Source: Actinomycetota bacterium
GTDB lineage: Bacteria > Actinomycetota > UBA4738 > CALAEC01
Reading direction: 5' to 3'
DNA: 64,000 nt
NCBI GenBank assembly: GCA_050692555.1
Contig: JBOGVS010000010.1
Coordinates: 5,691-69,690 of the forward strand
Each line of letters starts with the position of its first letter. The stretch's first letter is position 1. The notes under the pieces are model-generated. The model worked only from the letters and a program-made list of their open reading frames with translations. It did not search any database and was not told the DNA's origin. Shown here in pieces: positions 18,584-47,970 of this stretch. A program made the translations under genes and the position numbers.

Positions 18584-19527
18584 CCGGTGGCCAGGTCCAC
18601 CACGGCCCGGGCCACTCGCTCGGCTGCGGCGTCGTCGGCCATGATGGTGTCGGTGGCGGCCACTCGCATGCCGAGCTCTCGCTCGATGCGCGGCGCCAGC
18701 GCGGCGTCGCGGTGGTCGATCACGAAGCTCGAGAGCAGCCCGCGGTAGGCCGAGGCCGCGCCGAACGCCGAGACCTCCATCCCCACCGCCGGCATCAGGC
18801 GATCCGCCATGCCGGACACCGGAGCGCCTCCCACGATGGGGGAGACCCCACCTGCCGGACCGGATCGTTCCATGAGGGTCTCGGCGATCCCCGGCACCTC
18901 GAGGATGGGCCCGATGCTCACCACGGGGTTGGACGGGCAGAACAGCACGACGTCGGCGCGGCGGATGGCCTCCCGGACCCCGGGAGCAGGCCGGGCGGCG
19001 TCGATGCCCTCGAAGCGCACCTGCTTGACCCGGCCCCGTGCGCCGTGAGCCACCCAGTAGGTCTGGAACGGCGCCTCCACGCCGACCCCTTCCTCAGACT
19101 CCCAGTGGATCCACGTCTCCACACCGTCCTCCGTCATGGGGAGCACTCGGGTCCGGACGCCGAGGGCTTCACAGATCCGGGCGGTGACCTCGGTCAGCGT
19201 TCGCCCCTCCGCCAGCCACTGGGTGCGGACCAGATGCGTGGCCAGGTCCAGGTCGCCGAGACCGAACCAGGCCTGACCGCCGAGGCGGCGAACCTCCTCG
19301 AGCGCCCGGAAGGATTCGTCGGCCCGGCCCCAGCCGCGCCGGCGATCGGCCACCCCGGACAGCCAGTAGGTCACCGAGTCCAGGTCCGGGCAGATCCGGA
19401 GCCCGTGGAGGACGAGGTCGTCGCCGCCGTTCACCACCACGGTCACGTCTTCGGGGTCCACCACCCGCACCAGGCCGCGGAGGAACTTGCCCGCCCCCAC
19501 CCCGCCGGCCAGCGCCACGATCTTCAC
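18580..19527 (-). CDS. fbiA: 2-phospho-L-lactate/phosphoenolpyruvate transferase (CofD)
   Basis: LAGGVGAGKF, ICPDLDSV, FGLGDLDLATH, PSNPVVSIGPIL. Confidence 0.95.
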   Translation of the reverse strand: MKIVALAGGVGAGKFLRGLVRVVDPEDVTVVVNGGDDLVLHGLRICPDLDSVTYWLSGVADRRRGWGRADESFRALEEVRRLGGQAWFGLGDLDLATHLVRTQWLAEGRTLTEVTARICEALGVRTRVLPMTEDGVETWIHWESEEGVGVEAPFQTYWVAHGARGRVKQVRFEGIDAARPAPGVREAIRRADVVLFCPSNPVVSIGPILEVPGIAETLMERSGPAGGVSPIVGGAPVSGMADRLMPAVGMEVSAFGAASAYRGLLSSFVIDHRDAALAPRIERELGMRVAATDTIMADDAAAERVARAVVDLATG

Positions 19528-19559
19528 GGCCGCAAGCCTACCCGCGGTGCTAGGCTGCG

Positions 19560-22046
19560 GTGTCTATGGCCGTCGCCGCTTCCCACGCCACACGGCGGGC
19601 CCTCCGCCGCGCAGCCGAGGGCAAGTCCCTGTCGCTCCAGGAATCGGCGGCGCTGATGGAAGCCCGGGGCCCGGCCCTGGAAGCGCTGATGGACGTGGCC
19701 GGCTCGTTGCGAGACCTGGGTCACGGGCGCCGGGTCACCTATTCCCGGAAGGTGTTCGTCCCGCTCACGATGTTGTGCCGCGACGTCTGCCACTACTGCA
19801 CGTTCGCCCAGCCGCCGGCGAAGCTCGAGCGCCCGTACCTCTCGCCGGAGGACGTGGTGGCCATCGCCGAGGCCGGTGGCCGGGCGGGATGCAAGGAAGC
19901 GTTGTTCACACTCGGCGACCGGCCCGAGGCGCGTTACGAGGTGGCCAGGACATGGCTGGCAGAGCGCGGATACCACTCCACGCTCGACTACCTCCGTGCG
20001 GTGTCGATCCGGGTGATCGAGGAGACCGGGCTGCTGCCGCATCTCAACCCCGGGGTCATGTCGTACGAGGACCTCGCTCGCCTGAAGCACGTCTCGGCGT
20101 CGATGGGGCTCATGCTGGAGCAGTCGAGCGACCGGCTCACCGAGCGCGGGATGCCGCACCACGGCTCGCCCGACAAGGTTCCGGCCGTCCGGCTCCGAAC
20201 GATCGAGGACGCGGGACGGCTGGGGATCCCGTTCACCACCGGGATCCTGGTGGGGATCGGAGAGACGGTGCCGGAGCGAGTGGCGTCGCTGTTCGCCATA
20301 CGCGACCTCCACCGACGGTACCGGCACGTGCAGGAAGTCATCGTGCAGAACTTCAAGGCCAAGCCGGGCACCCGGATGCACGACCGCCCGGAGCCGGACA
20401 CCGAGAAGTTTCTGGCGACGGTTGCCACCGCGCGCGTGGTGCTCGGACCGCGGATGCATCTCCAGGCGCCCCCGAACCTCTCGGACCCGCACTATCCGCG
20501 GCTGCTGGACGCGGGCATCGACGACTGGGGCGGCGTGTCACCGGTCACTCCCGACCACGTGAATCCCGAGGCGCCGTGGCCCCGGCTGGAGGACCTGCGC
20601 CGGCGCACCGCCGAACGCGGGTTCGAGCTGCGGGAGCGGCTGTGCGTGTACCCGGAGTACGCCACGCGAGCGGATCCCTGGATCGCCGGGAAGATGCGAG
20701 CCCCCGTGGCCGCGCTCACCGGGGAGGCCGGGCTCGCCGTGGACGGCCAGGGCCCGGAGCCGGTGGCCTGGCAGGACCCCGACGTCCAGTGGAAGCCGCG
20801 CACCATCGAGCTCACCTTCGCCAAGGGCGCGGAGGCCGGTCTTCGACAGGACGCCGACACGGTGTACGGGGACCTGGACGGGCTCGAGGTGGAGGCCACC
20901 CGAGCCTGGGCCCGCCGCAAGGTGGACCCCCATCGCCTGTCCGCGGAGGTCCGCGAGGCTCTCCGGCGGGCCGCGTCGCACCGGCCCATCACGGATCAGG
21001 CGGCCCTGGCCCTGTTCCAGGCGGAGGGGGAGGACCTGGAGGCGCTGTGCCGGGTGGCCGACGACCTCCGCCGGGAGGCGGTGGGGGACGAGATCACCTA
21101 CGTGGTCAATCGGAACATCAACTTCACCAACGTGTGCTACGTGGGGTGCCGGTTCTGTGCGTTCGCCCAACGGGAAGTCGATCCGGAGTCCTACACCCTC
21201 ACCCTCCAGGAGGTGGCCGACCGGGCCGAGGAGGCCCGGGCCTACGGAGCCACCGAGATCTGCATGCAGGGCGGTATCCACCCCGACCTCCCCGGGGACT
21301 TCTACCTCCGGCTCCTGGACTCGGTGAAGGCCCGGGTCCCGGAGATCCACGTCCACGCGTTCAGCCCCATGGAGGTGCTGAACGGGGCCACCCGCCTGGG
21401 CGTCTCGTTCCGGGAGTTCCTGGCTGAGGCCCGGCGTCGGGGGCTGGGAACGATCCCGGGAACCGCGGCGGAGATCCTCGACGACGAGGTGCGATGGGTC
21501 CTGACCAAGGGGAAGCTTCCTGCCGACACGTGGGAGGAGATCGTTCGCACCGCGCACGACCTGGGGATCCGATCCTCATCGACCATCATGTACGGGCACG
21601 TCGACGCTCCGCCGCACTGGGTGTCGCACCTTCGCCGGCTGGCGCGCATCCAGGACGATACGGGTGGGTTCACGGAGTTCGTCCCGCTTCCGTTCGTGCA
21701 CCAGAACGCTCCGATCTACCTGGCGGGCAAGGCTCGCCCGGGCGCCACGTTCGACGAGAACCGGAGGATGCACGCCGTCGCTCGCATCCTGCTCGATGGT
21801 CGCATCGACAACGTTCAGGTGTCGTGGGTGAAGCTGGGGACCGAAGCGTGCAAGGTGATCTTGCGCGGCGGTGCCAACGACTTCGGTGGCACGTTGATGG
21901 AGGAAACGATCTCGCGCATGGCCGGAGCTGAGTGGGGCATCCGCATGGAACCACGCGAGTTCGACGAAGCGATCGTCGACATCGATCGCGTGCCCGCGCA
22001 GCGCACTACCACATACGAACGCGTCGTAGCAATAGCTGATCGCTAA
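19560..22046 (+). CDS. fbiC: Bifunctional FO synthase (CofG-CofH fusion, two radical SAM domains)
   Basis: CRDVCHYC and CYVGCRFC radical SAM motifs, DDWGGVSP, GTAAEILDD, GANDFGGTLM; start may be ATG 19566. Confidence 0.95.
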   Translation: MSMAVAASHATRRALRRAAEGKSLSLQESAALMEARGPALEALMDVAGSLRDLGHGRRVTYSRKVFVPLTMLCRDVCHYCTFAQPPAKLERPYLSPEDVVAIAEAGGRAGCKEALFTLGDRPEARYEVARTWLAERGYHSTLDYLRAVSIRVIEETGLLPHLNPGVMSYEDLARLKHVSASMGLMLEQSSDRLTERGMPHHGSPDKVPAVRLRTIEDAGRLGIPFTTGILVGIGETVPERVASLFAIRDLHRRYRHVQEVIVQNFKAKPGTRMHDRPEPDTEKFLATVATARVVLGPRMHLQAPPNLSDPHYPRLLDAGIDDWGGVSPVTPDHVNPEAPWPRLEDLRRRTAERGFELRERLCVYPEYATRADPWIAGKMRAPVAALTGEAGLAVDGQGPEPVAWQDPDVQWKPRTIELTFAKGAEAGLRQDADTVYGDLDGLEVEATRAWARRKVDPHRLSAEVREALRRAASHRPITDQAALALFQAEGEDLEALCRVADDLRREAVGDEITYVVNRNINFTNVCYVGCRFCAFAQREVDPESYTLTLQEVADRAEEARAYGATEICMQGGIHPDLPGDFYLRLLDSVKARVPEIHVHAFSPMEVLNGATRLGVSFREFLAEARRRGLGTIPGTAAEILDDEVRWVLTKGKLPADTWEEIVRTAHDLGIRSSSTIMYGHVDAPPHWVSHLRRLARIQDDTGGFTEFVPLPFVHQNAPIYLAGKARPGATFDENRRMHAVARILLDGRIDNVQVSWVKLGTEACKVILRGGANDFGGTLMEETISRMAGAEWGIRMEPREFDEAIVDIDRVPAQRTTTYERVVAIADR

Positions 22047-22115
22047 TCAGTTCGTCGCGGAAAAAGTCGCCGACAAATGCTTCAAACCCCCTTGCAAAAA
22101 GTTCATCATGGGGAC

Positions 22116-22168
22116 TGGACAAACATGGTGCTACCCAGTCAGAATTACACCCGTGTAGTTTCTGACAC
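22116..22168 (+). promoter_or_regulatory. Putative whiB promoter with palindrome and GACAC box
   Basis: TGGACA(22116-22121)-N18-CAGAAT(22140-22145); TACAC-cc-GTGTA at 22146-22157; GACAC at 22164-22168. Confidence 0.45.
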
Positions 22169-22183
22169 GGGGGAGGGCAGGGG

Positions 22184-22411
22184 ATGCACCACTACATCCC
22201 ATGGCAGGAGAGAGCGAAGTGCCGGGAGTTCGACCCGGAAGTCTTCTTCCCCGAGAAAGGCGGATCGTCGCGCGAGGCGAAACGGATCTGCGCCGAGTGC
22301 ACGGTCCGGATCCAGTGCCTCAACTACGCCCTGCGTCGCGACGAGCGCTACGGCGTGTGGGGAGGCATGAGCGAACGGGAACGACGACGCCTGAAGCGCA
22401 TGGCGTCCTGA
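22184..22411 (+). CDS. whiB: WhiB family Fe-S transcriptional regulator (WhiB/WhiB2-like)
   Basis: Four Cys; DPEVFFPEKGGSSREAKRIC and GVWGGMSERERRRLK match the WhiB2 type. Confidence 0.95.
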   Translation: MHHYIPWQERAKCREFDPEVFFPEKGGSSREAKRICAECTVRIQCLNYALRRDERYGVWGGMSERERRRLKRMAS

Positions 22412-22431
22412 CCGCAGAAGGGAGGTGACGA

Positions 22432-22746
22432 ATGGCACCAGCGCGGAGGAAAAAGTCGGCAGCGCGTAAGAAGAGCACCGGGCGCAAGAAGTCGACCGCC
22501 AGACGGAAGACGACGGCCGCGAGGAAGCGCACCACCAGAAAGTCCACGGCGCGCAGAAAGACCACGGGGCGGAAGTCGACCGGTAGGAAGCGCTCCACCG
22601 GCCGCAAGAAGTCGACAGCGCGCAAGCGCACGACCGGCCGGAAGAGGACCACGCGCAAGCGCACCACGGCCGCACGCCGGCCCAGGAAGCGCGCGGCGCG
22701 GAAGTCCACGGCAAAACGCACCACCGCGAGACGCAAGTCGAAGTAG
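22432..22746 (+). CDS. Histone H1/protamine-like basic repeat protein
   Basis: GGAGGTG RBS at 22421-22427; 104 aa with 51 K+R, no acidic residues, (G/A)R(K/R)(K/R)(S/T)T-type repeats; followed by a hairpin. Confidence 0.8.
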   Translation: MAPARRKKSAARKKSTGRKKSTARRKTTAARKRTTRKSTARRKTTGRKSTGRKRSTGRKKSTARKRTTGRKRTTRKRTTAARRPRKRAARKSTAKRTTARRKSK

Positions 22747-22762
22747 CTCGCGGAGGACCACA

Positions 22763-22790
22763 GAGAGGGGGGCCGTCGCGCCCCCCTCTC
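22763..22790 (+). terminator. Intrinsic terminator-like hairpin after whiB and the basic protein
   Basis: Perfect 11-bp stem GAGAGGGGGGC / GCCCCCCTCTC with a 6-nt loop. Confidence 0.7.
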
Positions 22791-22838
22791 GGCGTTCCCC
22801 CCGGAACTGATACGCCTATAGGCTAGGCCCCCGGCCGC

Positions 22839-25800
22839 ATGCAGAGCTCTACGCCGAGCGTCCTCGCCGTCCTCGTTGTGAAGGACGGCGCCTCCTGGCT
22901 CAAGCGGGTCCTGGACTCGCTGGCTCGCCAGACCCATCCTCGCTTTGCCGTCCTCGCCGTGGACAACGGCTCGAGAGACGGCTCCGGTGATCTCCTGGCC
23001 TCGTTCCTGGGCCCCCGGCGGGTGATCCGTCTGGAGGAAGACCAGGGGTTCCCCGGCGCGGTTCGCCGGGCCATGGAGACCCCGGCGGCCGCCGAAGCCG
23101 ACTACCTGTTGCTGCTGCACGACGACACGGTGCTCACGCCCGGAACCGTGTCGAGCCTGGTGGAGGCCGCGGGCCGGATCCCCGGTGTCGGTGCGGTGGG
23201 TCCCAAGGTCATGGACTGGGAGTCCCCCAGGGTGCTTCGGGAGGTGGGGTTCGCCACCGACCGATTCGGATACGCCTATTCCCCCCTGGAGGAAGGCGAG
23301 ATCGACCAGGGCCAGTACGACGCCCCCCGGGAGGTGCTGTTCGTGTCCTCGGCTGCGATGTTGGTGGCCGGGGATGCGTGGAAGCGGGCCGGTCCGCCGG
23401 ACGAACGCCTCCGTCACGGAGGCATGGACCTGGACTTCTGCTGGCGGATCCGGCTGTCGGGGTTCCGGGTCCTGGTGGCGCCGGCAGCGGTGGTTCAGCA
23501 CGGTGCGGTGGGGGAGCGTGGAGAGCGTCCCGCCGGGCCTCCGCGCCGGGAGCGCTACGTGGCCGAGCGAGCCGCCCTCCTGAGCCTGTTGAAGAACTAC
23601 CGGGTTCTGACCCTGGCGTGGGTGCTTCCCATCTATCTGGTCCAGGGGATCGCCCGACTGGCGCTGTACGTGGTGTCCCGGCGGTTCGACCGGGCCGGCC
23701 AGGTGCTTGGAGCGTGGGGATGGAACTTCATCCATCTTCTCGGCACCGCGGCTCGCCGGGCCCGTGCGCAGGCAGTCCGACAGGTGCCGGACCGCGAGAT
23801 CGCCCGGTTCATGGCTCCTGCCGGGACCAGGCTGTCGCGCTGGGCGCTCCAGGCCTCGTCGCTCCTGGTTCGTCGGCCCAGCGAAGGCACGGCGGAGCCC
23901 GGCGAGGAGGTGGAGGCCGTCCCGCTCGGCCGGCGGGTGGCGTCACTGGCCACGGCTCATCCCGTTGCCGTTGGACTGTCCGTCGCCGTCGTGGTGACGC
24001 TGATCGCCTTCCGAGGGGTGCTCTTCGTTCCCCACATCGAGGGGGGCGCGCTGCCGGTATTCCCCGCCGACCCCGGCGCCTTCTTCCGAGAGTTCGGAGC
24101 CGGCTGGCGCTCGACCGGGTTTGGGGGACAGGAAGGAGCCAGCCCCGCCCTGGTGGCGCTGGGGGTGGGCAGCGTGATCACCCTGGGGGACCCACAGCTC
24201 CTGGTTCGGCTCCTGGTGGGGCTGGGTCCGCTGCTCGCCGGAGCCTCGTGTCACGTCGCGGTGCGCCGACTGGGGATCTCCGGAGTAGCCGCGGTGGTGG
24301 CGGCAGGGGCGTACGGCCTCTCGGCCGTCACCCTGTGGTCCGCGTCCGAAGGGCGGGTCTCGGCCCTGGTGTTGTTGGTGGCCCTGCCCTGGCTGGTGGC
24401 CCGCCTGCTGGCCGGCTTCAAACCGAGACCTCCGGCCCGTCCTCTTCGGTGGCTGGTGGGAACGGGGATGGCCCTGGGGCTCACGACGTCGTTCTTCCCC
24501 GCTGCGTGGGTGGCGGTGGCCGCGGTTGTGGGGCCTGCGGTGATCCTTCCGGACAAGGGTGGCAGCAGGGCCGTCGGCTCGATGATGACGGTCGCCGCGG
24601 TGGCTGTCGGCGCCGCCCTGGTGTTCCCCCTGGCCGCGGCGCTCACCCAGGCGGGCGGTGGTGGGTCCGTGGGCGCCGCCGTCCGGCCGTCGTTCTCCGA
24701 TGTTCTGAGGCTGGCGCCCGGCCCGTCCCCGGGATCGTGGATCCCGGCGTTGTTCCTTCCTGTTGCGGGGATCCTGGGCTTCGTGCTGGGCCAAGCGGCG
24801 GTGCGCCGAACGGCCGCACGCTCGCTGGCCACCGCATCGATCTCGGTGATGCTGGCGTGGCTGGCCGGGGCGGGCCGGCTGCCGGAACCGGTGGCCAGCC
24901 CGGTCGCCTTCCTGGCCGGGGCGGCGTTTTCTCTGTCGGTTCTCTCGGGCCTCGGCGCGCGGGCCCTGGCCAGTGGAGTCCGCCTCCGCCGCGCGGCATT
25001 CGGCGCCGGCCAGCTCACGGGGGCTGCCCTGGTGACGGTGCTGTCGGTCGGGCTGGGGGCGCAAACGATCAGGTCGCTGGGTGGGGACTGGGCCGTGGGG
25101 GAGTCTCGTGTGCCGCCCGCGTGGCCGGTGGTGGCGTCCGCGGATCCCGGTGTGGCCTTCCGGGTGCTGTGGCTGGCCCCCCCCGGCCGGTCGCCGTTGC
25201 CGCCTCCTGCCGGTGATCCGGAGGGCTCATCCGCGGGTGGAGGATCCGCGGTGTCGTACGCGGTCACCGGGCGAGGAGGTCGGTCGATCCTCGCAGTGGC
25301 GCTGCCGACCGATGGACCGGCCTATCCGCGGCTCGACCGGATCCTGTCGGCGATGCTGGCCGATGAGGTTCGCCACGCCGGTGCTCTGCTCGCACCTCTG
25401 GGGATCCGGTTCGTGGTTGCCGGCGATGAGGCCCTGTCGCCGGGCGCCGCCGAGAGCCTGGGCGCCCAGGTGGACCTGGACCTGATCCAGCGAGCGGGTG
25501 GCCTGTCGATCTACCGGAACGCCAGGGCGCTGCCTCCGGCCGGGTTGCTTCCGGGTCAGGCAGCTCTCGACGCGGCTCGATCGCCATCCCTGCTGGCCGC
25601 CACCGTCCTGGACCCCGCGACCACCGCGGCCCTGGCTCCCGACGGCGGGGCCACCTGGGCAGCGGACGTGGACCGGGGCGAGGCCTCCCTGGTAAGCGTG
25701 GCGGACACGTTCTCCGTGGCGTGGCGATTGGAGGCCCCCGAAGGCTCGGCCGCGCCGTTCCCCGCGTTCGGCTGGGGCCTGGGGTTCGAGGCCCAAGCGG

Positions 25801-25994
25801 GGACCGGCTCCCTGGAGGCCCGGTTCGAGGGCCAGCTCCGCAGGCGAGTGGAGCTCCTGGCATTAGCAGCGCTGTGGATCGTGGCCGTGTGGATGGTGCG
25901 ACGGACCGCCCGCGACGAGCGACCCGTCCGGCGGCGAGCAGTGGCGGACGAGCCGGTCGCCGCTCGGGCGCCGACCACGGAGCCGGTGGGATGA
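22839..25994 (+). CDS. Large GT2-family glycosyltransferase fused to a multi-TM membrane domain
   Basis: N-terminal VDNGSRD, LLLHDD, GEIDQGQYD, DLDFCWR; long hydrophobic C-terminal region; conserved position after whiB in actinobacteria. Confidence 0.85.
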   Translation: MQSSTPSVLAVLVVKDGASWLKRVLDSLARQTHPRFAVLAVDNGSRDGSGDLLASFLGPRRVIRLEEDQGFPGAVRRAMETPAAAEADYLLLLHDDTVLTPGTVSSLVEAAGRIPGVGAVGPKVMDWESPRVLREVGFATDRFGYAYSPLEEGEIDQGQYDAPREVLFVSSAAMLVAGDAWKRAGPPDERLRHGGMDLDFCWRIRLSGFRVLVAPAAVVQHGAVGERGERPAGPPRRERYVAERAALLSLLKNYRVLTLAWVLPIYLVQGIARLALYVVSRRFDRAGQVLGAWGWNFIHLLGTAARRARAQAVRQVPDREIARFMAPAGTRLSRWALQASSLLVRRPSEGTAEPGEEVEAVPLGRRVASLATAHPVAVGLSVAVVVTLIAFRGVLFVPHIEGGALPVFPADPGAFFREFGAGWRSTGFGGQEGASPALVALGVGSVITLGDPQLLVRLLVGLGPLLAGASCHVAVRRLGISGVAAVVAAGAYGLSAVTLWSASEGRVSALVLLVALPWLVARLLAGFKPRPPARPLRWLVGTGMALGLTTSFFPAAWVAVAAVVGPAVILPDKGGSRAVGSMMTVAAVAVGAALVFPLAAALTQAGGGGSVGAAVRPSFSDVLRLAPGPSPGSWIPALFLPVAGILGFVLGQAAVRRTAARSLATASISVMLAWLAGAGRLPEPVASPVAFLAGAAFSLSVLSGLGARALASGVRLRRAAFGAGQLTGAALVTVLSVGLGAQTIRSLGGDWAVGESRVPPAWPVVASADPGVAFRVLWLAPPGRSPLPPPAGDPEGSSAGGGSAVSYAVTGRGGRSILAVALPTDGPAYPRLDRILSAMLADEVRHAGALLAPLGIRFVVAGDEALSPGAAESLGAQVDLDLIQRAGGLSIYRNARALPPAGLLPGQAALDAARSPSLLAATVLDPATTAALAPDGGATWAADVDRGEASLVSVADTFSVAWRLEAPEGSAAPFPAFGWGLGFEAQAGTGSLEARFEGQLRRRVELLALAALWIVAVWMVRRTARDERPVRRRAVADEPVAARAPTTEPVG

Positions 25995-27430
25995 GCTTCG
26001 GCGGCCGGCTGTTGGTGGGCGCCGTGGTCGCTGCGGTGGTGGCGGTGGGAGGACTCCAGCTCGAGGCGCAGGTCGGGGCCCGGGCGATCGCTCCCGGGCC
26101 ATCCGTCGAGGAGCTCTCCGGGGCCTGGTACTGCCCGCACGGCGGCGGTGAAGGTTGGCAGGCGTGGGTGGTGGTGGCGAACCCGTCGGACGCCGCAGCG
26201 ACCCTGAGGGTCAGCACTCATGCAGGGAGCACTCCGGAGTCGTCGCAAACCGTGCTCGAGCCGGGGACCAGCCGGTACCTGGAGGTCGCCGCACCGGTGA
26301 TGGCATCGGCCACGGTGGTCGAGTACTTCGGCGCCGAGGTGGCTGCCGGGATGGTCGTCGCTGCCGGCGAGGACGGGGGCGTGGCTGCCGAACCGTGCGC
26401 AGGCAACGCGGGGGGCCGCTGGTACGTCCCCGAGGCCTCCACGCTGCGCGGCGAGCAGGCCAGCGCGGTGATCACCAACCCGTTCGCCGCCAACGCGGTC
26501 GTGGACCTGGCCCTGTATGCCGGTGATCGGCAGATCCGCCCCGGACCGCTCCGAGGGCTGGTCCTGGAGCCCGGGCGGACCAAGGCGGTGAACCTGAACC
26601 GCTTCGCCCTGGGGGAGGAGTCGCTGTCCGTTGAGGTGACCGCGCTGCTGGGGAGGGTCGCGGTCTCCGGGATGGTGACCAGCAACAGCGGGGTTCGGGC
26701 GGTGCAGGCCGTGCCGGAGGCCGCGCACAGCTGGGCGTTGCCGGGTGCCGGTGGAGCGGAGGGGCAGGACCGGCTCCTGGTGACCTCTCCGAGCGGCCTG
26801 GAGGCTCCCTTCCACGCCACGGCCCAGGGAGGGGACGGTGCGTTCCCGGTCCTGGATCTGGAATCGGCCCGGGGAGGCGCGGTGACGGGGTTCGAGATCG
26901 AGGCCCAGGATGCTTCGGTCCTGGTGGAGGCCGACGGGCCGGATGTCCTGGTGGTGGGGCGGCGGCTGGGAGGCCCTGCCCCGGCTCCGCCGAAGGAGCC
27001 CCCAAAGGATCAGAAGACCGGGAAGGACGGCCCGGGAAAGAAGAAGGAGGCCGACCAGGAGCAGGAGGAACCGGCCCCCGCCGCGAGCGACGTGGCCTCC
27101 ACCTCCGGGGTCCCTGCGGCCGCGGCCTCCTGGGTGACCATTCCACCGGTGGTCCCCGGAGGGGGGCCCGCGGTGCTCCTGATCCAGAACCCCGGGTCCG
27201 AGGAAGCCGAGGTGCGGGTCACGCTGCTGGGACAGGGGGGGCCGCAAGGGGAGGAGACCACCCTCCCCGTGGCTCCGGGGGCCACGGCTCGCGTCGACCT
27301 GCCGGCCGGAGATCCTCCCGCAGCGGTGGTGGAGGCCCTCCAGGGGTCGGTGGTCCCGGCCCAGATCACCCCTGACCCCGCGGCCTACGCACTGTCGGTG
27401 GGTATACCCGTGGGCCGACCGACCGGTTGA
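25991..27430 (+). CDS. DUF5719-like secreted/membrane protein
   Basis: ATGA overlap with GT2 stop; N-terminal TM, WYCP, repeated xxNP beta modules; position after the GT2 gene. Confidence 0.7.
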   Translation: MSFGGRLLVGAVVAAVVAVGGLQLEAQVGARAIAPGPSVEELSGAWYCPHGGGEGWQAWVVVANPSDAAATLRVSTHAGSTPESSQTVLEPGTSRYLEVAAPVMASATVVEYFGAEVAAGMVVAAGEDGGVAAEPCAGNAGGRWYVPEASTLRGEQASAVITNPFAANAVVDLALYAGDRQIRPGPLRGLVLEPGRTKAVNLNRFALGEESLSVEVTALLGRVAVSGMVTSNSGVRAVQAVPEAAHSWALPGAGGAEGQDRLLVTSPSGLEAPFHATAQGGDGAFPVLDLESARGGAVTGFEIEAQDASVLVEADGPDVLVVGRRLGGPAPAPPKEPPKDQKTGKDGPGKKKEADQEQEEPAPAASDVASTSGVPAAAASWVTIPPVVPGGGPAVLLIQNPGSEEAEVRVTLLGQGGPQGEETTLPVAPGATARVDLPAGDPPAAVVEALQGSVVPAQITPDPAAYALSVGIPVGRPTG

Positions 27431-35921: not shown

Positions 35922-36150
35922 GCTCGCGCCTGGGTCTGTGGTTGCCCGGAGGGACGTCCTCCGGTAGTCGACGCCAGCCGCAGGCGAAACGACCCACGTA
36001 AGGCGACCATTGGTTGCTGAGCATGGTGCGGCTTAGATGTAAGCCCTGCCTCGGCCATCGGCCGGGAGAAGGTGCTAAGCCGTCGTCCTCGACGGCGAAC
36101 CCCTCAGCAGGCGGGTGTGGGGGCAAAGACCAGGTCAGCCGGACGCGAGC
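35922..36150 (+). ncRNA. raiA motif RNA
   Basis: Between comF and hpf/raiA; terminal stem GCTCGCG/CGCGAGC; contains segments I recall as conserved in raiA RNAs (GTGGTTG, AGTCGAcGCCAG, GCAGGCgAAACGAcCCACGTAAG, GAGCATGGTGCGGCTTAGAtGTAAG, AGCAGGCGgGTGTGGGG, CAAAGACCAGGTCA); TACCAT -10 at 35908-35913. Confidence 0.9.
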
Positions 36151-36219
36151 TTCGAGAGGACCGGGCACCGCCCGGTCCTCTCTTTCTTCTTCCGGGTAGT
36201 CCGACAGAAAGGGCCGCGG

Positions 36220-36618
36220 ATGGATCTGGTGATGAAGGCCAGGGGAGAGCGGGTGGTGGGCCGGACCAGGGCGCGGGCGGAGCGCAAACTCTCCCGACTC
36301 CTGCGGCTGGACGCCGGGATCGACTACGTGGAGATCGAGGTGATTCGGGAGAAGCGTGCCCGGATCGGGGGCGGCCACCGAGTGGAGGCCTCGTGCCGTG
36401 CCGGCCGCCGGACCTACCGGGCCTCGGCATCCGGGCGGGACGTGGATGGGGCGCTCGATCGGCTGATCGAGCGCTTGGAGCGGCAGATCACCGACGGCCG
36501 GGGCCGGCGGAGGGCCCGCCTGCTGTCGGGCGCCGGCAGGGTAAAATCACGCGGAATGTCCGCATTTGAGGGCCGCACGAGCCCCAGCCCGCCCACCGAA
36601 CCAGAGCCCCCTCGGTGA
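36220..36618 (+). CDS. hpf: Ribosome hibernation factor HPF/RaiA, short form
   Basis: MDLVMKARG..ERKLSRL..VEASC..ASASGRDVDGALDRLIERLERQI fits the S30AE N-domain; GAAAGG RBS; comF-hpf-secA synteny. Confidence 0.82.
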   Translation: MDLVMKARGERVVGRTRARAERKLSRLLRLDAGIDYVEIEVIREKRARIGGGHRVEASCRAGRRTYRASASGRDVDGALDRLIERLERQITDGRGRRRARLLSGAGRVKSRGMSAFEGRTSPSPPTEPEPPR

Positions 36619-45891: not shown

Positions 45892-47019
45892 GTGAGCAGG
45901 TCCCGCTCCCTTCTCTTCGCTCTGGTGGTGGTGCTCGTCGGCGTCGGAGGCTTCTTCGCCGGCCGGCTGACGGTGGACCAAGCGGTGGAGTTCGAGGAAG
46001 TTGCCACGGCCGCGGAAGGCATCGAGCGGCGGGCGCTGGTCCCACCCACCCGGGAGGACCTGGTCCGGGGAGCGATCCGGGGGATGCTCGAGACCCTCGA
46101 CGACCCCTACGCGGCCATCCTGGGCCCGGAAGAGGCCGCCGCGGCTCGCGACCTGAGCACCGGCTCGTTCGTGGGCATCGGGGCCTTCGTGGAGGGCGGA
46201 CCCGAGGGACTGGTGGTCACCTCGGTGCTGCAAGGGTCGCCGGCAGGGGACGCCGGGATCGTCCCCGGTGACCTGCTGACCACCGTCGACGGCCGCCCGA
46301 TGGCCGGACTCACCGCCGCGCAGGCAGCGCCCATCCTCTCGGGAGCGGAGGGAAGCACCGCACGGCTGGTGATCCGCACCGTGGGGAGCGAGCGTGAGGT
46401 GACCGTGGTGCGAGCCCGGATCTCGTTGTCGGACGTGCAGGCCAGGATGCTCGAGGGCCAGGTGGCGTACGCCCGCGCGCTCCAGTTCGGCGAAGGGGTG
46501 GCCGGGGATCTCCGGCGGCAGATCGGGCGGCTCCTGGACCAGGGGGCCAGGGGGCTGGTGCTCGACCTCCGAGGAAATCCCGGCGGAGTGGTGGACGAGG
46601 CCGTTGCCACGGCCAGCCTGTTCCTGGCCGACGGGTCGGTTGCCAGGATCCAGGAGGCCGGCGAGGAGGAGCAGGACCTTCCCGTGTCCGGCGATCCGCT
46701 GCCCGAGGTTCCCATGGCCGTGGTCGTCGACGGCGGAACGGCCGGCGCCGCGGAGCTGGTGGCCGGTGCTCTGCAGGATCGTGACCGGGCCACGCTGGTC
46801 GGCATCCAGACGTTCGGAAAGGGCTCGGTGCTGGAGGTGCAGGACCTCGAGGCATCGGACGAGGCCATCCGGTTCACCTCCGCCACGTTCCTGACGCCGT
46901 CCGGCGGAAGCATCGAGGGCCGAGGGCTGATCCCCGACGTGGCCCTCCTTCCGGGCGGACCCACCGACGCCCAGGTCGAGCGGGCGGTACAGGTGGTCCT
47001 GGCCCAGCAGACGGCCTGA
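45892..47019 (+). CDS. S41 family (CtpA-like) PDZ peptidase, catalytic Ser apparently replaced by Gly
   Basis: GIG PDZ loop, LDLRGNPGG, TFGKGSV; TAGAAE in place of the SASASE motif. Confidence 0.88.
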   Translation: MSRSRSLLFALVVVLVGVGGFFAGRLTVDQAVEFEEVATAAEGIERRALVPPTREDLVRGAIRGMLETLDDPYAAILGPEEAAAARDLSTGSFVGIGAFVEGGPEGLVVTSVLQGSPAGDAGIVPGDLLTTVDGRPMAGLTAAQAAPILSGAEGSTARLVIRTVGSEREVTVVRARISLSDVQARMLEGQVAYARALQFGEGVAGDLRRQIGRLLDQGARGLVLDLRGNPGGVVDEAVATASLFLADGSVARIQEAGEEEQDLPVSGDPLPEVPMAVVVDGGTAGAAELVAGALQDRDRATLVGIQTFGKGSVLEVQDLEASDEAIRFTSATFLTPSGGSIEGRGLIPDVALLPGGPTDAQVERAVQVVLAQQTA

Positions 47020-47486
47020 TGGCCACCGGCGAGCGGGCCGTGGCCACGAACCGCCGGGCCCGTCACGACTACGAGATCGAGGAGACCTTCGAAGCGGGCA
47101 TGGTCCTTACCGGCTCGGAGGTCAAATCCCTGCGGGCGGGCCAGGCCTCGCTGGCCGAGGCCTACGCGCGGCTGGATGGGGGCGAGGTGTGGGTCGAGAA
47201 CCTCCACATCCCTCCCTACAGCCATGGATCTCCGCAGGAGAGGGACCCTCGACGGCGCCGGAAGCTGCTGCTCCACCGGAAAGAGATCGACCGGCTGGTC
47301 GGGAAGATCCAGGAACGCGGCCTGACCCTGGTTCCCCTCCGCCTGTACTTTCGCCGCGGGCGGGCCAAGATCGAGCTGGGTCTGGGGCGGGGCCGCCGGA
47401 GGTTCGAGAAGCGCCAGGCCATCGCGGAGCGGGAGCATCGGCGGGAGATGGAGCGGGCGGCCTCCCAGCGGCACCGCCGCCGGTAG
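47019..47486 (+). CDS. smpB: SsrA-binding protein
   Basis: NRRARHDY, EAGMVLTGSEVKSLR, RKLLLHRKEI, LVPLRLYF. Confidence 0.97.
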   Translation: MATGERAVATNRRARHDYEIEETFEAGMVLTGSEVKSLRAGQASLAEAYARLDGGEVWVENLHIPPYSHGSPQERDPRRRRKLLLHRKEIDRLVGKIQERGLTLVPLRLYFRRGRAKIELGLGRGRRRFEKRQAIAEREHRREMERAASQRHRRR

Positions 47487-47528
47487 GGACCCCGCGCCGG
47501 GTCTCCTATACTGAAAGGGAACTGAATA

Positions 47529-47877
47529 GGGGGTGACCTGGCTTCGACTTGGGTGATTGCCGCCCGGGGGAAGCGGGCCGAGGTTCCCGGAGTCCTCGTT
47601 AAAGAGCCGGGACCAACACAAGCGCCGACGATTACGCGCTCGCTGCCTAGTTAGCTAGGTAGCCGTCCGCCGTGGCTCGCCTGTGGCCACGGGCCGGACG
47701 TCATCAACAGGCTTACCCGGCAGGGTGCGCCTCGTGCCCCGCCGGGGACATCTCAGCGAGGCTGGTCCGGCGGACCTCCGCCTGTGGGAACCGCCGGACG
47801 AGATCGATCCGCAGGCTGCGCCCGGAGAAGACCCGGACGGTCGCCCGAGGACGCGGGTTCGATTCCCGCCACCTCCA
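47529..47877 (+). ncRNA. ssrA: Transfer-messenger RNA; tag peptide (A)ADDYALAA
   Basis: 5' GGGGGTG pairs with 3' CACCTCC-A; T-arm GCGGGTTCGATTCCCGC; tag ORF GCC GAC GAT TAC GCG CTC GCT GCC TAG at 47624-47650; follows smpB; TATACT -10 at 47507-47512. Confidence 0.96.
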
Positions 47878-47878
47878 C

Positions 47879-47970
47879 GAGCGCCACCGCATCCGTGACA
47901 CGGATCCCCGTCGGCTGAGCCCACATCCACAGTTCGAGATTCTCCGGTCTGTTGTCCTCACGCCATCTCG
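47879..47970 (-). pseudogene. Degenerate C-terminal fragment of an HNH endonuclease abutting the ssrA 3' end
   Basis: Minus strand encodes DNRPENLELWMWAQPTGIRVTDAVA, with DGVR in an adjacent frame just upstream; resembles the NGxRxDNRxENLELW motif of HNH_3-type proteins. Confidence 0.6.

Follow-up and report, generated by a model that had tools for sequence, protein, structure and literature searches.

Within the 64-kb stretch of actinomycetotal DNA analysed here (the window, in whose coordinates all positions are given), whiB is followed after a gap of 20 nt by an open reading frame (ORF) at 22432-22746 that encodes a strongly basic, repetitive polypeptide. We are highly confident that this polybasic ORF is a genuine protein-coding gene and that it is co-transcribed with whiB. 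On the role of its product our confidence is lower: the best explanation of the whole, a polycation encoded on the whiB mRNA that coats or condenses DNA, is in our judgement about evenly balanced between right and wrong. The features on which the argument turns are the following.

22116-22145, + strand: predicted sigma-70-type whiB promoter, with -35 TGGACA, an 18-nt spacer and -10 CAGAAT
22184-22411, + strand: whiB, 75 amino acids (aa), stop codon TGA at 22409-22411, Pfam Whib E 1.7e-27
22420-22428, + strand: Shine-Dalgarno site GGGAGGTGA of the polybasic ORF, its GGAGG core ending 6 nt 5' of the ATG
22432-22746, + strand: polybasic ORF, 104 aa, ATG at 22432, hexad (G/A)R(K/R)(K/R)(S/T)T repeats
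22763-22790, + strand: terminator-like hairpin, arms 22763-22773 and 22780-22790, 11 bp of G+C, 6-nt loop, no U-tract
22839-25994, + strand: GT2 gene, 1051 aa

A sequence-only reading of this DNA had described the ribosome-binding site (RBS), the hexad repeats, the 11-bp hairpin and the composition of the product, and each of these was recovered where it had been placed. The product is built from eight residue types (R29 K22 T21 A15 S9 G5 P2 M1): 51 residues are lysine or arginine (49%), 30 are serine or threonine (29%), none is aspartate or glutamate, and Met1 is the sole hydrophobic residue. Exact copies of the hexad number nine and ST/TT pairs 14, and Tandem Repeats Finder reports DNA tandem periods of 15, 18 and 36 within the ORF. 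The product has a mass of approximately 11 kDa and a net charge near +51, and trypsin would reduce it to fragments of di- to hexapeptide size; it offers no cleavage site to Glu-C or chymotrypsin. A single-sequence AlphaFold model has a predicted template modelling score (pTM) of 0.13 and contains no secondary structure. Because it lacks a hydrophobic core and gives this model, the protein is predicted to be fully disordered and unable to fold, in agreement with the earlier view that it has no globular domain. Among ORFs of at least 60 aa in all frames of the window it is unique in combining a K+R fraction above 0.33, more than 8% K and a coding-like G+C content at third codon positions (GC3); K+R lies between 0.07 and 0.24 in the 49 other likely genes, and GC3 is 0.86 compared with 0.83-0.89 in the neighbouring genes. 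The class "bacterial H1-like polycationic low-complexity protein", which is not a homology family, is marked by a very high proportion of K/R, tandem repeats of short units and the absence of acidic residues and of a folded domain, and the ORF product has all of these features.

At the 70% G+C of this genome a long open frame is easily come by. Both the sense frame and one of the antisense frames lack stops in 19 of the 19 loci examined, because the codons in use cannot produce them there, so openness proves nothing. The case for a protein is carried by the pattern of change. A 667-nt query over whiB and the ORF retrieved relatives with an identical WhiB protein that differ from the window by 7-14%, with 7-27 gap openings. 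All indels in these relatives are multiples of three nucleotides and leave the ORF in frame at 104, 107, 108 or 110 aa, and both the RBS and the ATG 20 nt 3' of whiB are unchanged in the close relatives. Differences by codon position are 1/1/14 between L004 and L006 and 4/3/14 between the window and L009. Synonymous and non-synonymous changes stand at 12:2, 12:6 and 28:21 in the three closest pairs, and at 27:36 against L011, the most distant orthologue. Purifying selection of the kind expected for a coding gene is therefore present in the sense frame across relatives.

Scoring all six frames led to the outright rejection of three (0-9 synonymous changes versus 14-57 replacements). Replacements in the sense frame are conservative, with a mean BLOSUM62 score of -0.2 to +1 and mostly K/R, S/T and A/G/T exchanges. 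The antisense frame with the same third positions has a mean near -1.2 to -1.5 in four of the five pairs compared, the remaining pair scoring 0.0. Only the sense frame joins many synonymous changes to conservative replacements. Repeats of the same type also occur in other soil proteins as in-frame extensions of recognisable N- or C-terminal domains, and because of these fusions to ordinary domains we take such repeats to be translated. Judged from the alignments, selection keeps the charge, the absence of acidic and hydrophobic residues, the approximate length and the termini, and the repeats turn over freely.

Other readings of the same nucleotides were considered as genes. The antisense frame sharing third positions was rejected for its radical replacements and because it has neither start nor RBS; in the window it is the shadow of the GT2 gene. 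An antisense ORF of 137 aa was set aside for its GC3 of 0.40. A read-through or frameshift fusion of the window ORF with WhiB was likewise rejected, as whiB and the ORF differ in frame and the ORF's own frame is closed by a TGA at 22426-22428, inside the Shine-Dalgarno site and one codon ahead of the ATG. At loci of the L052 type the ORF frame is open back into whiB, and a fusion may be possible there. On contigs of 1.4-10 kb from L006, L008, L009 and L093 gene callers annotated an antisense ORF of 91-144 aa instead, and at L004 a 53-aa ORF in another frame was picked. In public data such genes are annotated too rarely.

The initiation region is conserved beyond the close relatives. The sequence GGAGGTGA, followed by ATG or TTG 4-8 nt on, is kept in the variants of the window clade and in L011, L086, L087 and L092, and other G-rich sites of the GGAGG type stand ahead of the ATG in L052, L069, L078 and L080.

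The predicted whiB promoter is the one site returned by a consensus scan in which 0.1 were expected. Its -35/-10 pair aligns 5' of whiB in 10 of 11 other loci, from uncultured lineages to Streptomyces and Nocardioides (L004, L011, L052, L078, L080, L086, L087, L082, L088 and L089), with CTTGAC or TGGACA as the -35 and (T/C)AGAAT or GTAAT as the -10 variants; among these eleven loci the pair was not recognisable at the Egibacteraceae locus L084. A scan of the + strand for terminators found none in the 20-nt spacer between whiB and the ORF, and the sole terminator-like pattern on that strand is a weak one of five pairs at 22222-22238, inside the whiB coding sequence. The hairpin at 22763-22790 fails the rho-independent terminator scan, having no U-tract, and we accept it as terminator-like because its position is conserved and RNA depth drops to zero. 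The 76-nt segment that contains it folds with -36.7 kcal/mol (z -2.4). A hairpin with a G6/C6 core is kept at the same place 3' of the stop codon in seven related loci, with some pair changes, and L086, L087 and L092 have different but equivalent hairpins 3' of the ORF.

Transcription was followed in Logan contigs, which are unstranded and of rough depth, and whose molecules come from close relatives (approximately 97% identical) and maybe not from the same strain. In three soil metatranscriptomes (X23-X25), contigs of 332, 411 and 353 nt run from within whiB (22276 or 22340) to 22616 in the ORF. At an identity of at least 85%, depth in the three runs rises to 440-711 over whiB and is 5-104 over the ORF; it is zero at 22048-22158 and at 22714-22935, and coverage begins in the bin 22159-22195. 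At an identity of at least 95%, in a view of 19500-26500, the bin 22308-22541 has a depth of 60-76 in two runs and 10 in the third, fbiC and GT2 reach at most about 6, and contigs bridge 22340-22616. Since next to no coverage falls on the neighbouring fbiC and GT2 genes, DNA carry-over or the mapping of conserved sequence is an unlikely source of this signal. The coverage agrees with a transcript of whiB and the ORF that begins downstream of the promoter and reaches no further than the hairpin. The polybasic ORF is thus represented in RNA by contigs that also cover whiB, and the properties of an operon, namely one transcript over both genes, no internal terminator and a terminator 3' of the unit, were found for the pair. 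The sequence-only reading would have been overturned by the lack of a transcript and of codon-level conservation; RNA contigs and selection on the sense frame were found instead.

Runs X5, X10, X12 and X15 (organisms A-C) were rejected as expression evidence, because they cover the whole region at even depth and look like the DNA of relatives. Runs X5, X9-X12 and X14-X20, labelled as the single organisms A-C, hold 90-95% identical copies of fbiC-whiB-ORF-GT2 at even depth. Relatives of the window bacterium are thus present in these samples, as associates or contaminants.

Two further elements flank the transcription unit.

22150-22171, + strand: inverted repeat CCCGTGT-N8-ACACGGG in the whiB leader, read from sequence, holding GACAC
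22819-22824, + strand: TAGGCT, putative -10-like box for GT2, proposed from conservation only

The inverted repeat is formed in the window by an element, CAC..GTGT.GTTTC (TnACACnnGTGTnGTTTC), that lies just 3' of the -10 box and is conserved across lineages. Its GACAC is presumably a WhiA-type motif, and the repeat may be a site of autoregulation. TAGGCT or TAGTCT recurs 15-35 nt 5' of the GT2 start in the window clade (including L004 and L006), L011, L052, L069, L078, L080 and L086, which suggests that GT2-DUF5719 is a separate unit whose promoter would have a very short leader.

The upstream gene had been named as WhiB/WhiB2 in the sequence-only reading, and structural matches and synteny agree. 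The best solved relative is Streptomyces venezuelae WhiB (8dy7/8dy9; E 2e-31 over 70 aligned residues), compared with E 7e-17 for WhiB1 and 1e-12 or weaker for WhiB3, WhiB4 and WhiB7, and the alignment extends up to the penultimate residue of the S. venezuelae protein. Among WhiBs with a named source, those of Euzebyales and Egibacteraceae come closest (71-75% identity). In the window DUF3105, fbiB and cofD on the minus strand are followed by fbiC, whiB, the ORF, GT2, DUF5719 and YkuD, with a phosphomannomutase further on; the canonical order in Streptomyces, Nocardioides and a Propionibacteriaceae genome is cofD/fbiB, whiB, GT2, DUF5719, Zincin_1, DUF3499. Judged by its closest structure and by this synteny, the gene is of the WhiB/WhiB2 orthologue type. 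Mycobacteria cannot divide without WhiB/WhiB2, and Streptomyces requires it for sporulation septation; its locus ranks with the most conserved of the phylum. WhiB acts with WhiA and sigmaA at promoters (PMC10243135, PMC4850268).

Homology searches are nearly blind to the ORF product. With phmmer it gave one match among 5.8 billion proteins, P0001, in an unrelated context, and three matches at E 1e-3 or better among 1.84 billion representatives; a search of the PDB returned no match. Its distribution was therefore traced by synteny. A scan of genome contigs with the GT2 neighbour as a single protein query gave three loci, one of them useful (L011). Products encoded between whiB and GT2 are as follows.

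Window clade, L002-L009: 104-110 aa, GRKKST-type hexads
L011 (Actinomycetota metagenome-assembled genome, GT2 56% identical): 98 aa, TGAKK/STAKRTT repeats, sharing the C-terminal ...STAKRTTARR
L052, L069, L078, L080 (WhiB about 91% identical): 123-149 aa, (T/P)AARKK repeats
L086 (WhiB 68% identical): 47 aa
L087 (WhiB 71% identical): 136 aa, AAKKPVKKAAPKKA repeats
L092/L093 (WhiB 70% identical): 89 aa

All of these ORFs have a GGAGG-type RBS, start 20-70 nt 3' of whiB and are followed by a hairpin. Their products span 47-149 aa and have no D/E and at most a few hydrophobic residues; the repeats differ and the composition is alike. In every such locus with enough upstream sequence fbiC lies 5' of whiB, a common position which suggests that the carriers form one clade. 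Polybasic ORFs downstream of whiB, often mis-annotated, are thus present in several uncultured lineages, where the sequence-only reading had advised looking for them.

The same reading knew of no such pairing in the usual whiB locus, and this was borne out. The whiB-GT2-DUF5719 synteny is kept without a polybasic ORF at the Euzebyales-type loci L082/L083 and L091, at the Egibacteraceae loci L084/L085, and in Streptomyces, Nocardioides and Propionibacteriaceae. In the Streptomyces locus L088 (5292-5903) the whiB-GT2 spacer is 613 nt of C/A-rich repetitive sequence (CACCACCGGCACC...), with no called gene and no basic frame. In a metagenome scan whiB lay directly upstream in 19 of 68 polybasic-repeat loci, and in 13 of the 40 loci with at least 900 nt of upstream sequence. 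WhiB-like (Wbl) genes are a handful among the thousands of genes in a genome, and with so few, well under 1% chance adjacency to whiB is expected. The metagenomes that yielded the carrier lineages are from soil, caves and apparently arid soil. In full-text searches of the literature no account of a polybasic gene next to whiB came up. We conclude that the pairing of whiB with the ORF is real, specific to certain lineages and apparently undescribed.

A polybasic ORF adjoins whiB in a second lineage as well (L014, L057 and others; 15 metagenomic loci), outside the GT2 context. The WhiB of this lineage is 50-58% identical to that of the window, and its best PDB match is again WhiB (E 2e-28). Where complete, the ORF encodes 136-202 aa with the N-terminus MAAKKTTGRRKST, and it starts 170-420 nt after whiB. 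Approximately 200 nt 5' of it is a conserved promoter-like element of its own, GCTTGA or GCTTGCA, 17 nt and CCTAAT, found in L014, L021, L024, L030, L033, L035, L039, L041, L045, L061 and L063; 3' of this element the leader contains two hairpins (TGAATGCGCGCTTGTGCGCG and a covarying stem before the RBS). In the RNA library X31 a depth of 24-144 is confined to the second-lineage ORF, and whiB and the flanks are at zero; in DNA-like runs these 2.4 kb of the second lineage are covered evenly. The co-transcription with whiB put forward in the sequence-only reading hence holds for the window clade, with its bridging contigs and a spacer free of terminators, but it is not universal.

Polybasic repeats also occur in other architectures. 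A family of soil proteins combines an acidic N-terminal domain (MPDEDKSLVERARDLTAG...) with GRKKST/ARKSPARKK repeats and has no whiB nearby (L016, L018, L019, L022, L025, L026, L028, L031, L042, L043, L054, L058, L060 and L076, together with P0001, which lies near ATP synthase genes). In L038, L050 and L081 the RKKSTG repeats are N-terminal, and a stress-protein-like domain (...YSRGASKSVESEMKRYKKGK...KSRKQAIAIGLSKAR) makes up the C-terminus.

Because its net charge is near +51, the ORF product is expected to bind polyanions. DNA would be the likeliest target, since Hc2, HupS and the lysine repeats of TopA and Ku act on DNA; that DNA is the main target of a coating or condensing protein, as composition suggests by analogy, we put slightly short of even. 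The ORF is expressed with whiB on one mRNA from the conserved whiB promoter, the unit ending at the hairpin at 22763-22790; in the mechanism we propose, this shared mRNA would cause the product to be made whenever WhiB/WhiB2 is made. It would coat, neutralise and compact chromosomal DNA non-specifically, in the manner of the C-terminal tail of H1, of Hc2 and of actinobacterial HU tails. Its synthesis would follow the WhiA/WhiB division programme (PMC10243135, PMC4850268, PMC13473873), so that nucleoid compaction would be tied to division, and its many Ser/Thr (and Lys) residues could let the charge be tuned by modification. The switch by Ser/Thr kinases at ST/TT pairs put forward in the sequence-only reading is plausible as chemistry and found no support here; the annotated neighbourhood has no kinase gene next to the polybasic ORF.

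Several observations weigh against this picture. Composition alone fits RNA or polyphosphate (polyP) equally well: the KPAA tail of PhaF binds mRNA and that of AlgP polyP granules (PMC12818456, PMC9239181). The ORF product has no significant similarity to any characterised DNA-binding family in Pfam, NCBIfam or the PDB: against Pfam PF07382 (HC2) it scores 13 bits (E 0.11) compared with a gathering threshold of 40 bits, a score that reflects composition only, and against NCBIfam NF038053 (hist_H1_lk_Burk) 14 bits (E 0.045) compared with a cut-off of 80 bits. Coupling to WhiB expression is not obligatory, as the second lineage has its own promoter and its ORF is covered without whiB in X31. The carriers are uncultured, and the dormancy link put forward in the sequence-only reading found no support here. 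Evidence for the product consists of the gene sequence and RNA contigs; these contigs are unstranded, and metatranscriptomes can contain DNA. Finally, one antisense frame, the one with the same third positions, is likewise uninterrupted at all 19 loci and equal in GC3, and its rejection depends solely on the pattern of replacements, the want of a start or RBS, and context.

The alternative that survives best is that the polycation binds RNA, as a disordered RNA chaperone, a translation modulator or a ribosome-associated factor, and is not a nucleoid protein. The physical properties required are identical to those of a DNA condenser, arginine (29) exceeds lysine (22) in the product, and arginine-rich motifs are typical of RNA binders; the second-lineage ORF is expressed apart from whiB at high relative depth, and the tail of PhaF is a precedent (PMC12818456). 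We nevertheless consider RNA binding unlikely, as the gene is linked by conservation to a division transcription factor without an obvious tie to translation, and most characterised bacterial proteins of such composition bind DNA (PMC2848022, PMC11229371, PMC3553676).

The adjacency itself invites a closer link with WhiB. Two lineages with different operon layouts keep the genes side by side, which suggests that the polycation could be a dedicated partner of WhiB/WhiB2 in deep-branching uncultured Actinomycetota, either a DNA-anchoring tail of WhiB-sigmaA acting in trans or a WhiB-coupled, condensin-like switch by which the chromosome is compacted and cleared at septation; we regard this broader proposal as distinctly unlikely. 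Its narrower form, in which the product is an accessory of WhiB that would anchor the WhiB-sigmaA(-WhiA) promoter complex to DNA, non-specifically and detachably, as a trans version of the basic tail or AT-hook of some Wbl proteins, is in our view quite improbable. It would explain why the ORF stays next to a WhiB/WhiB2-type gene in both lineages in spite of different operon architecture and neighbours, one mRNA fixes the relation between the synthesis of the two products in the window clade, and WhiB does work with WhiA and sigmaA at promoters (PMC10243135, PMC4850268). However, the window WhiB aligns over 70 residues with that of S. venezuelae and nothing appears to be missing from it, well-studied actinobacteria do without the ORF, and repeats that diverge freely speak against a specific interface with a protein.

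It is very improbable that the product is instead a partner of polyP or of another polyanion, organising polyP granules or neutralising an anionic polymer under starvation or desiccation: AlgP is a precedent (PMC9239181) and the carriers come from soil, cave and apparently arid-soil metagenomes, but the neighbourhood has no polyP genes, the linkage is to whiB and not to ppk, and the argument is one of analogy only. That the locus is no sense-strand gene at all but a repetitive whiB 3' untranslated region or an antisense ORF, its polybasic reading a by-product of codon-like repeats, can be dismissed almost entirely, for although that antisense frame is open with matching GC3 in 19 of 19 loci, gene callers chose the antisense ORF on the short contigs of L006, L008, L009 and L093 and the RNA contigs are unstranded, the RBS and start are conserved in a constant spacing from whiB, the stop codon comes shortly ahead of the terminator, replacements are conservative in the sense frame only, the long antisense ORF of the window is a shadow of GT2 without a conserved start, the neighbours, promoter and terminator are all on the + strand, and sense-oriented fusions to real domains exist.

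A transcribed and selected polycation gene in the whiB operon of several uncultured soil lineages points to an additional link between a division regulator and a polyanion, most likely the chromosome. It also exposes a blind spot of annotation: such proteins are systematically missed, gene callers often choose the wrong strand, and the genes can be found only by synteny and composition. If the proposal of DNA condensation is true, bacteria would have in this product a minimal counterpart of the H1 tail that stands alone, with about 100 aa and eight residue types; it would offer a simple system for work on how charge compacts nucleoids and on how Ser/Thr or Lys modification controls this.

Elsewhere in the window, a raiA RNA motif (Rfam RF03072, 151 bits) at 35925-36147 lies immediately 5' of a gene for a ribosome hibernation factor (Ribosomal_S30AE, 36115-36618) and extends over its called start; 3' of this gene are a LuxR-type response regulator gene and secA. 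At 47019-47880 smpB (155 aa, 24% K/R) is followed immediately by a tmRNA gene (RF00023, 154 bits).

When the window is compared with the canonical whiB (whiB2/whmD) locus, the cofD/fbiB-whiB-large GT2-DUF5719 synteny and the whiB promoter are common to both; further on lie DUF3499 in relatives and the phosphomannomutase in the window. The two differ in that the canonical whiB-GT2 spacer lacks the polybasic ORF present in the window and in several uncultured lineages.

Among known proteins Hc2 (hctB), whose expression is tied to a developmental programme, is like the ORF product in standing alone, in being very basic with short K/R-rich repeats, and in varying in length with repeat number, as the ORF does between 104 and 110 aa in close strains. 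Hc2 proteins are 165-237 aa, a length set by the number of lysine-rich repeats, and bind DNA (PMC2848022). They belong to another phylum and have Lys/Ala pentamers in place of the S/T- and Arg-rich hexad GRKKST, and the ORF lies in a whiB operon; DNA binding is established for Hc2, whereas the ORF product is known here from its gene and composition.

The tails of HupB/HupS, TopA, Ku and DdbA are actinobacterial, disordered and rich in K/A/P/T, and the AAKKPVKKAAPKKA repeats of L087 are of that type. These lysine-rich tails bind DNA and are tuned by acetylation (PMC11229371, PMC5714199, PMC3553676, PMC3643593): HupS compacts spore nucleoids through its lysine-rich tail, under control of lysine acetylation (PMC11229371), and the lysine repeats of TopA and Ku bind DNA (PMC5714199, PMC3553676). 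In all of them the tail is attached to a folded domain, whereas the ORF product is a tail alone, encoded beside whiB.

AlgP and PhaF of Pseudomonas share with it H1-like, disordered, polycationic repeats whose number varies between species. They differ in being proteobacterial, in having N-terminal domains, and in a Lys/Pro/Ala composition without S/T or Arg. PhaF binds specific mRNAs through its H1-like disordered KPAA tail and activates their translation (PMC12818456), and AlgP, likewise H1-like and repetitive, is found on polyP granules and sets their spacing (PMC9239181); their targets are polyP granules, mRNAs or polyhydroxyalkanoate granules and not primarily chromatin (PMC9239181, PMC12818456).

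Further afield, the C-terminal domain of linker histones and the protamines offer an analogy only. With them, the ORF product has no evolutionary relation; it has no winged-helix domain, and protamines are shorter and rich in Arg/Cys. Both eukaryotic types are about 40-50% basic, free of acidic residues and disordered, they condense DNA by charge, and phosphorylation of S/T sites beside basic residues loosens their binding. By sequence, the ORF product resembles an H1 tail, Hc2 or an HU tail but belongs to none of those families. What sets it apart from Hc2, AlgP and PhaF is its S/T- and Arg-rich hexad together with its fixed place in the whiB operon.

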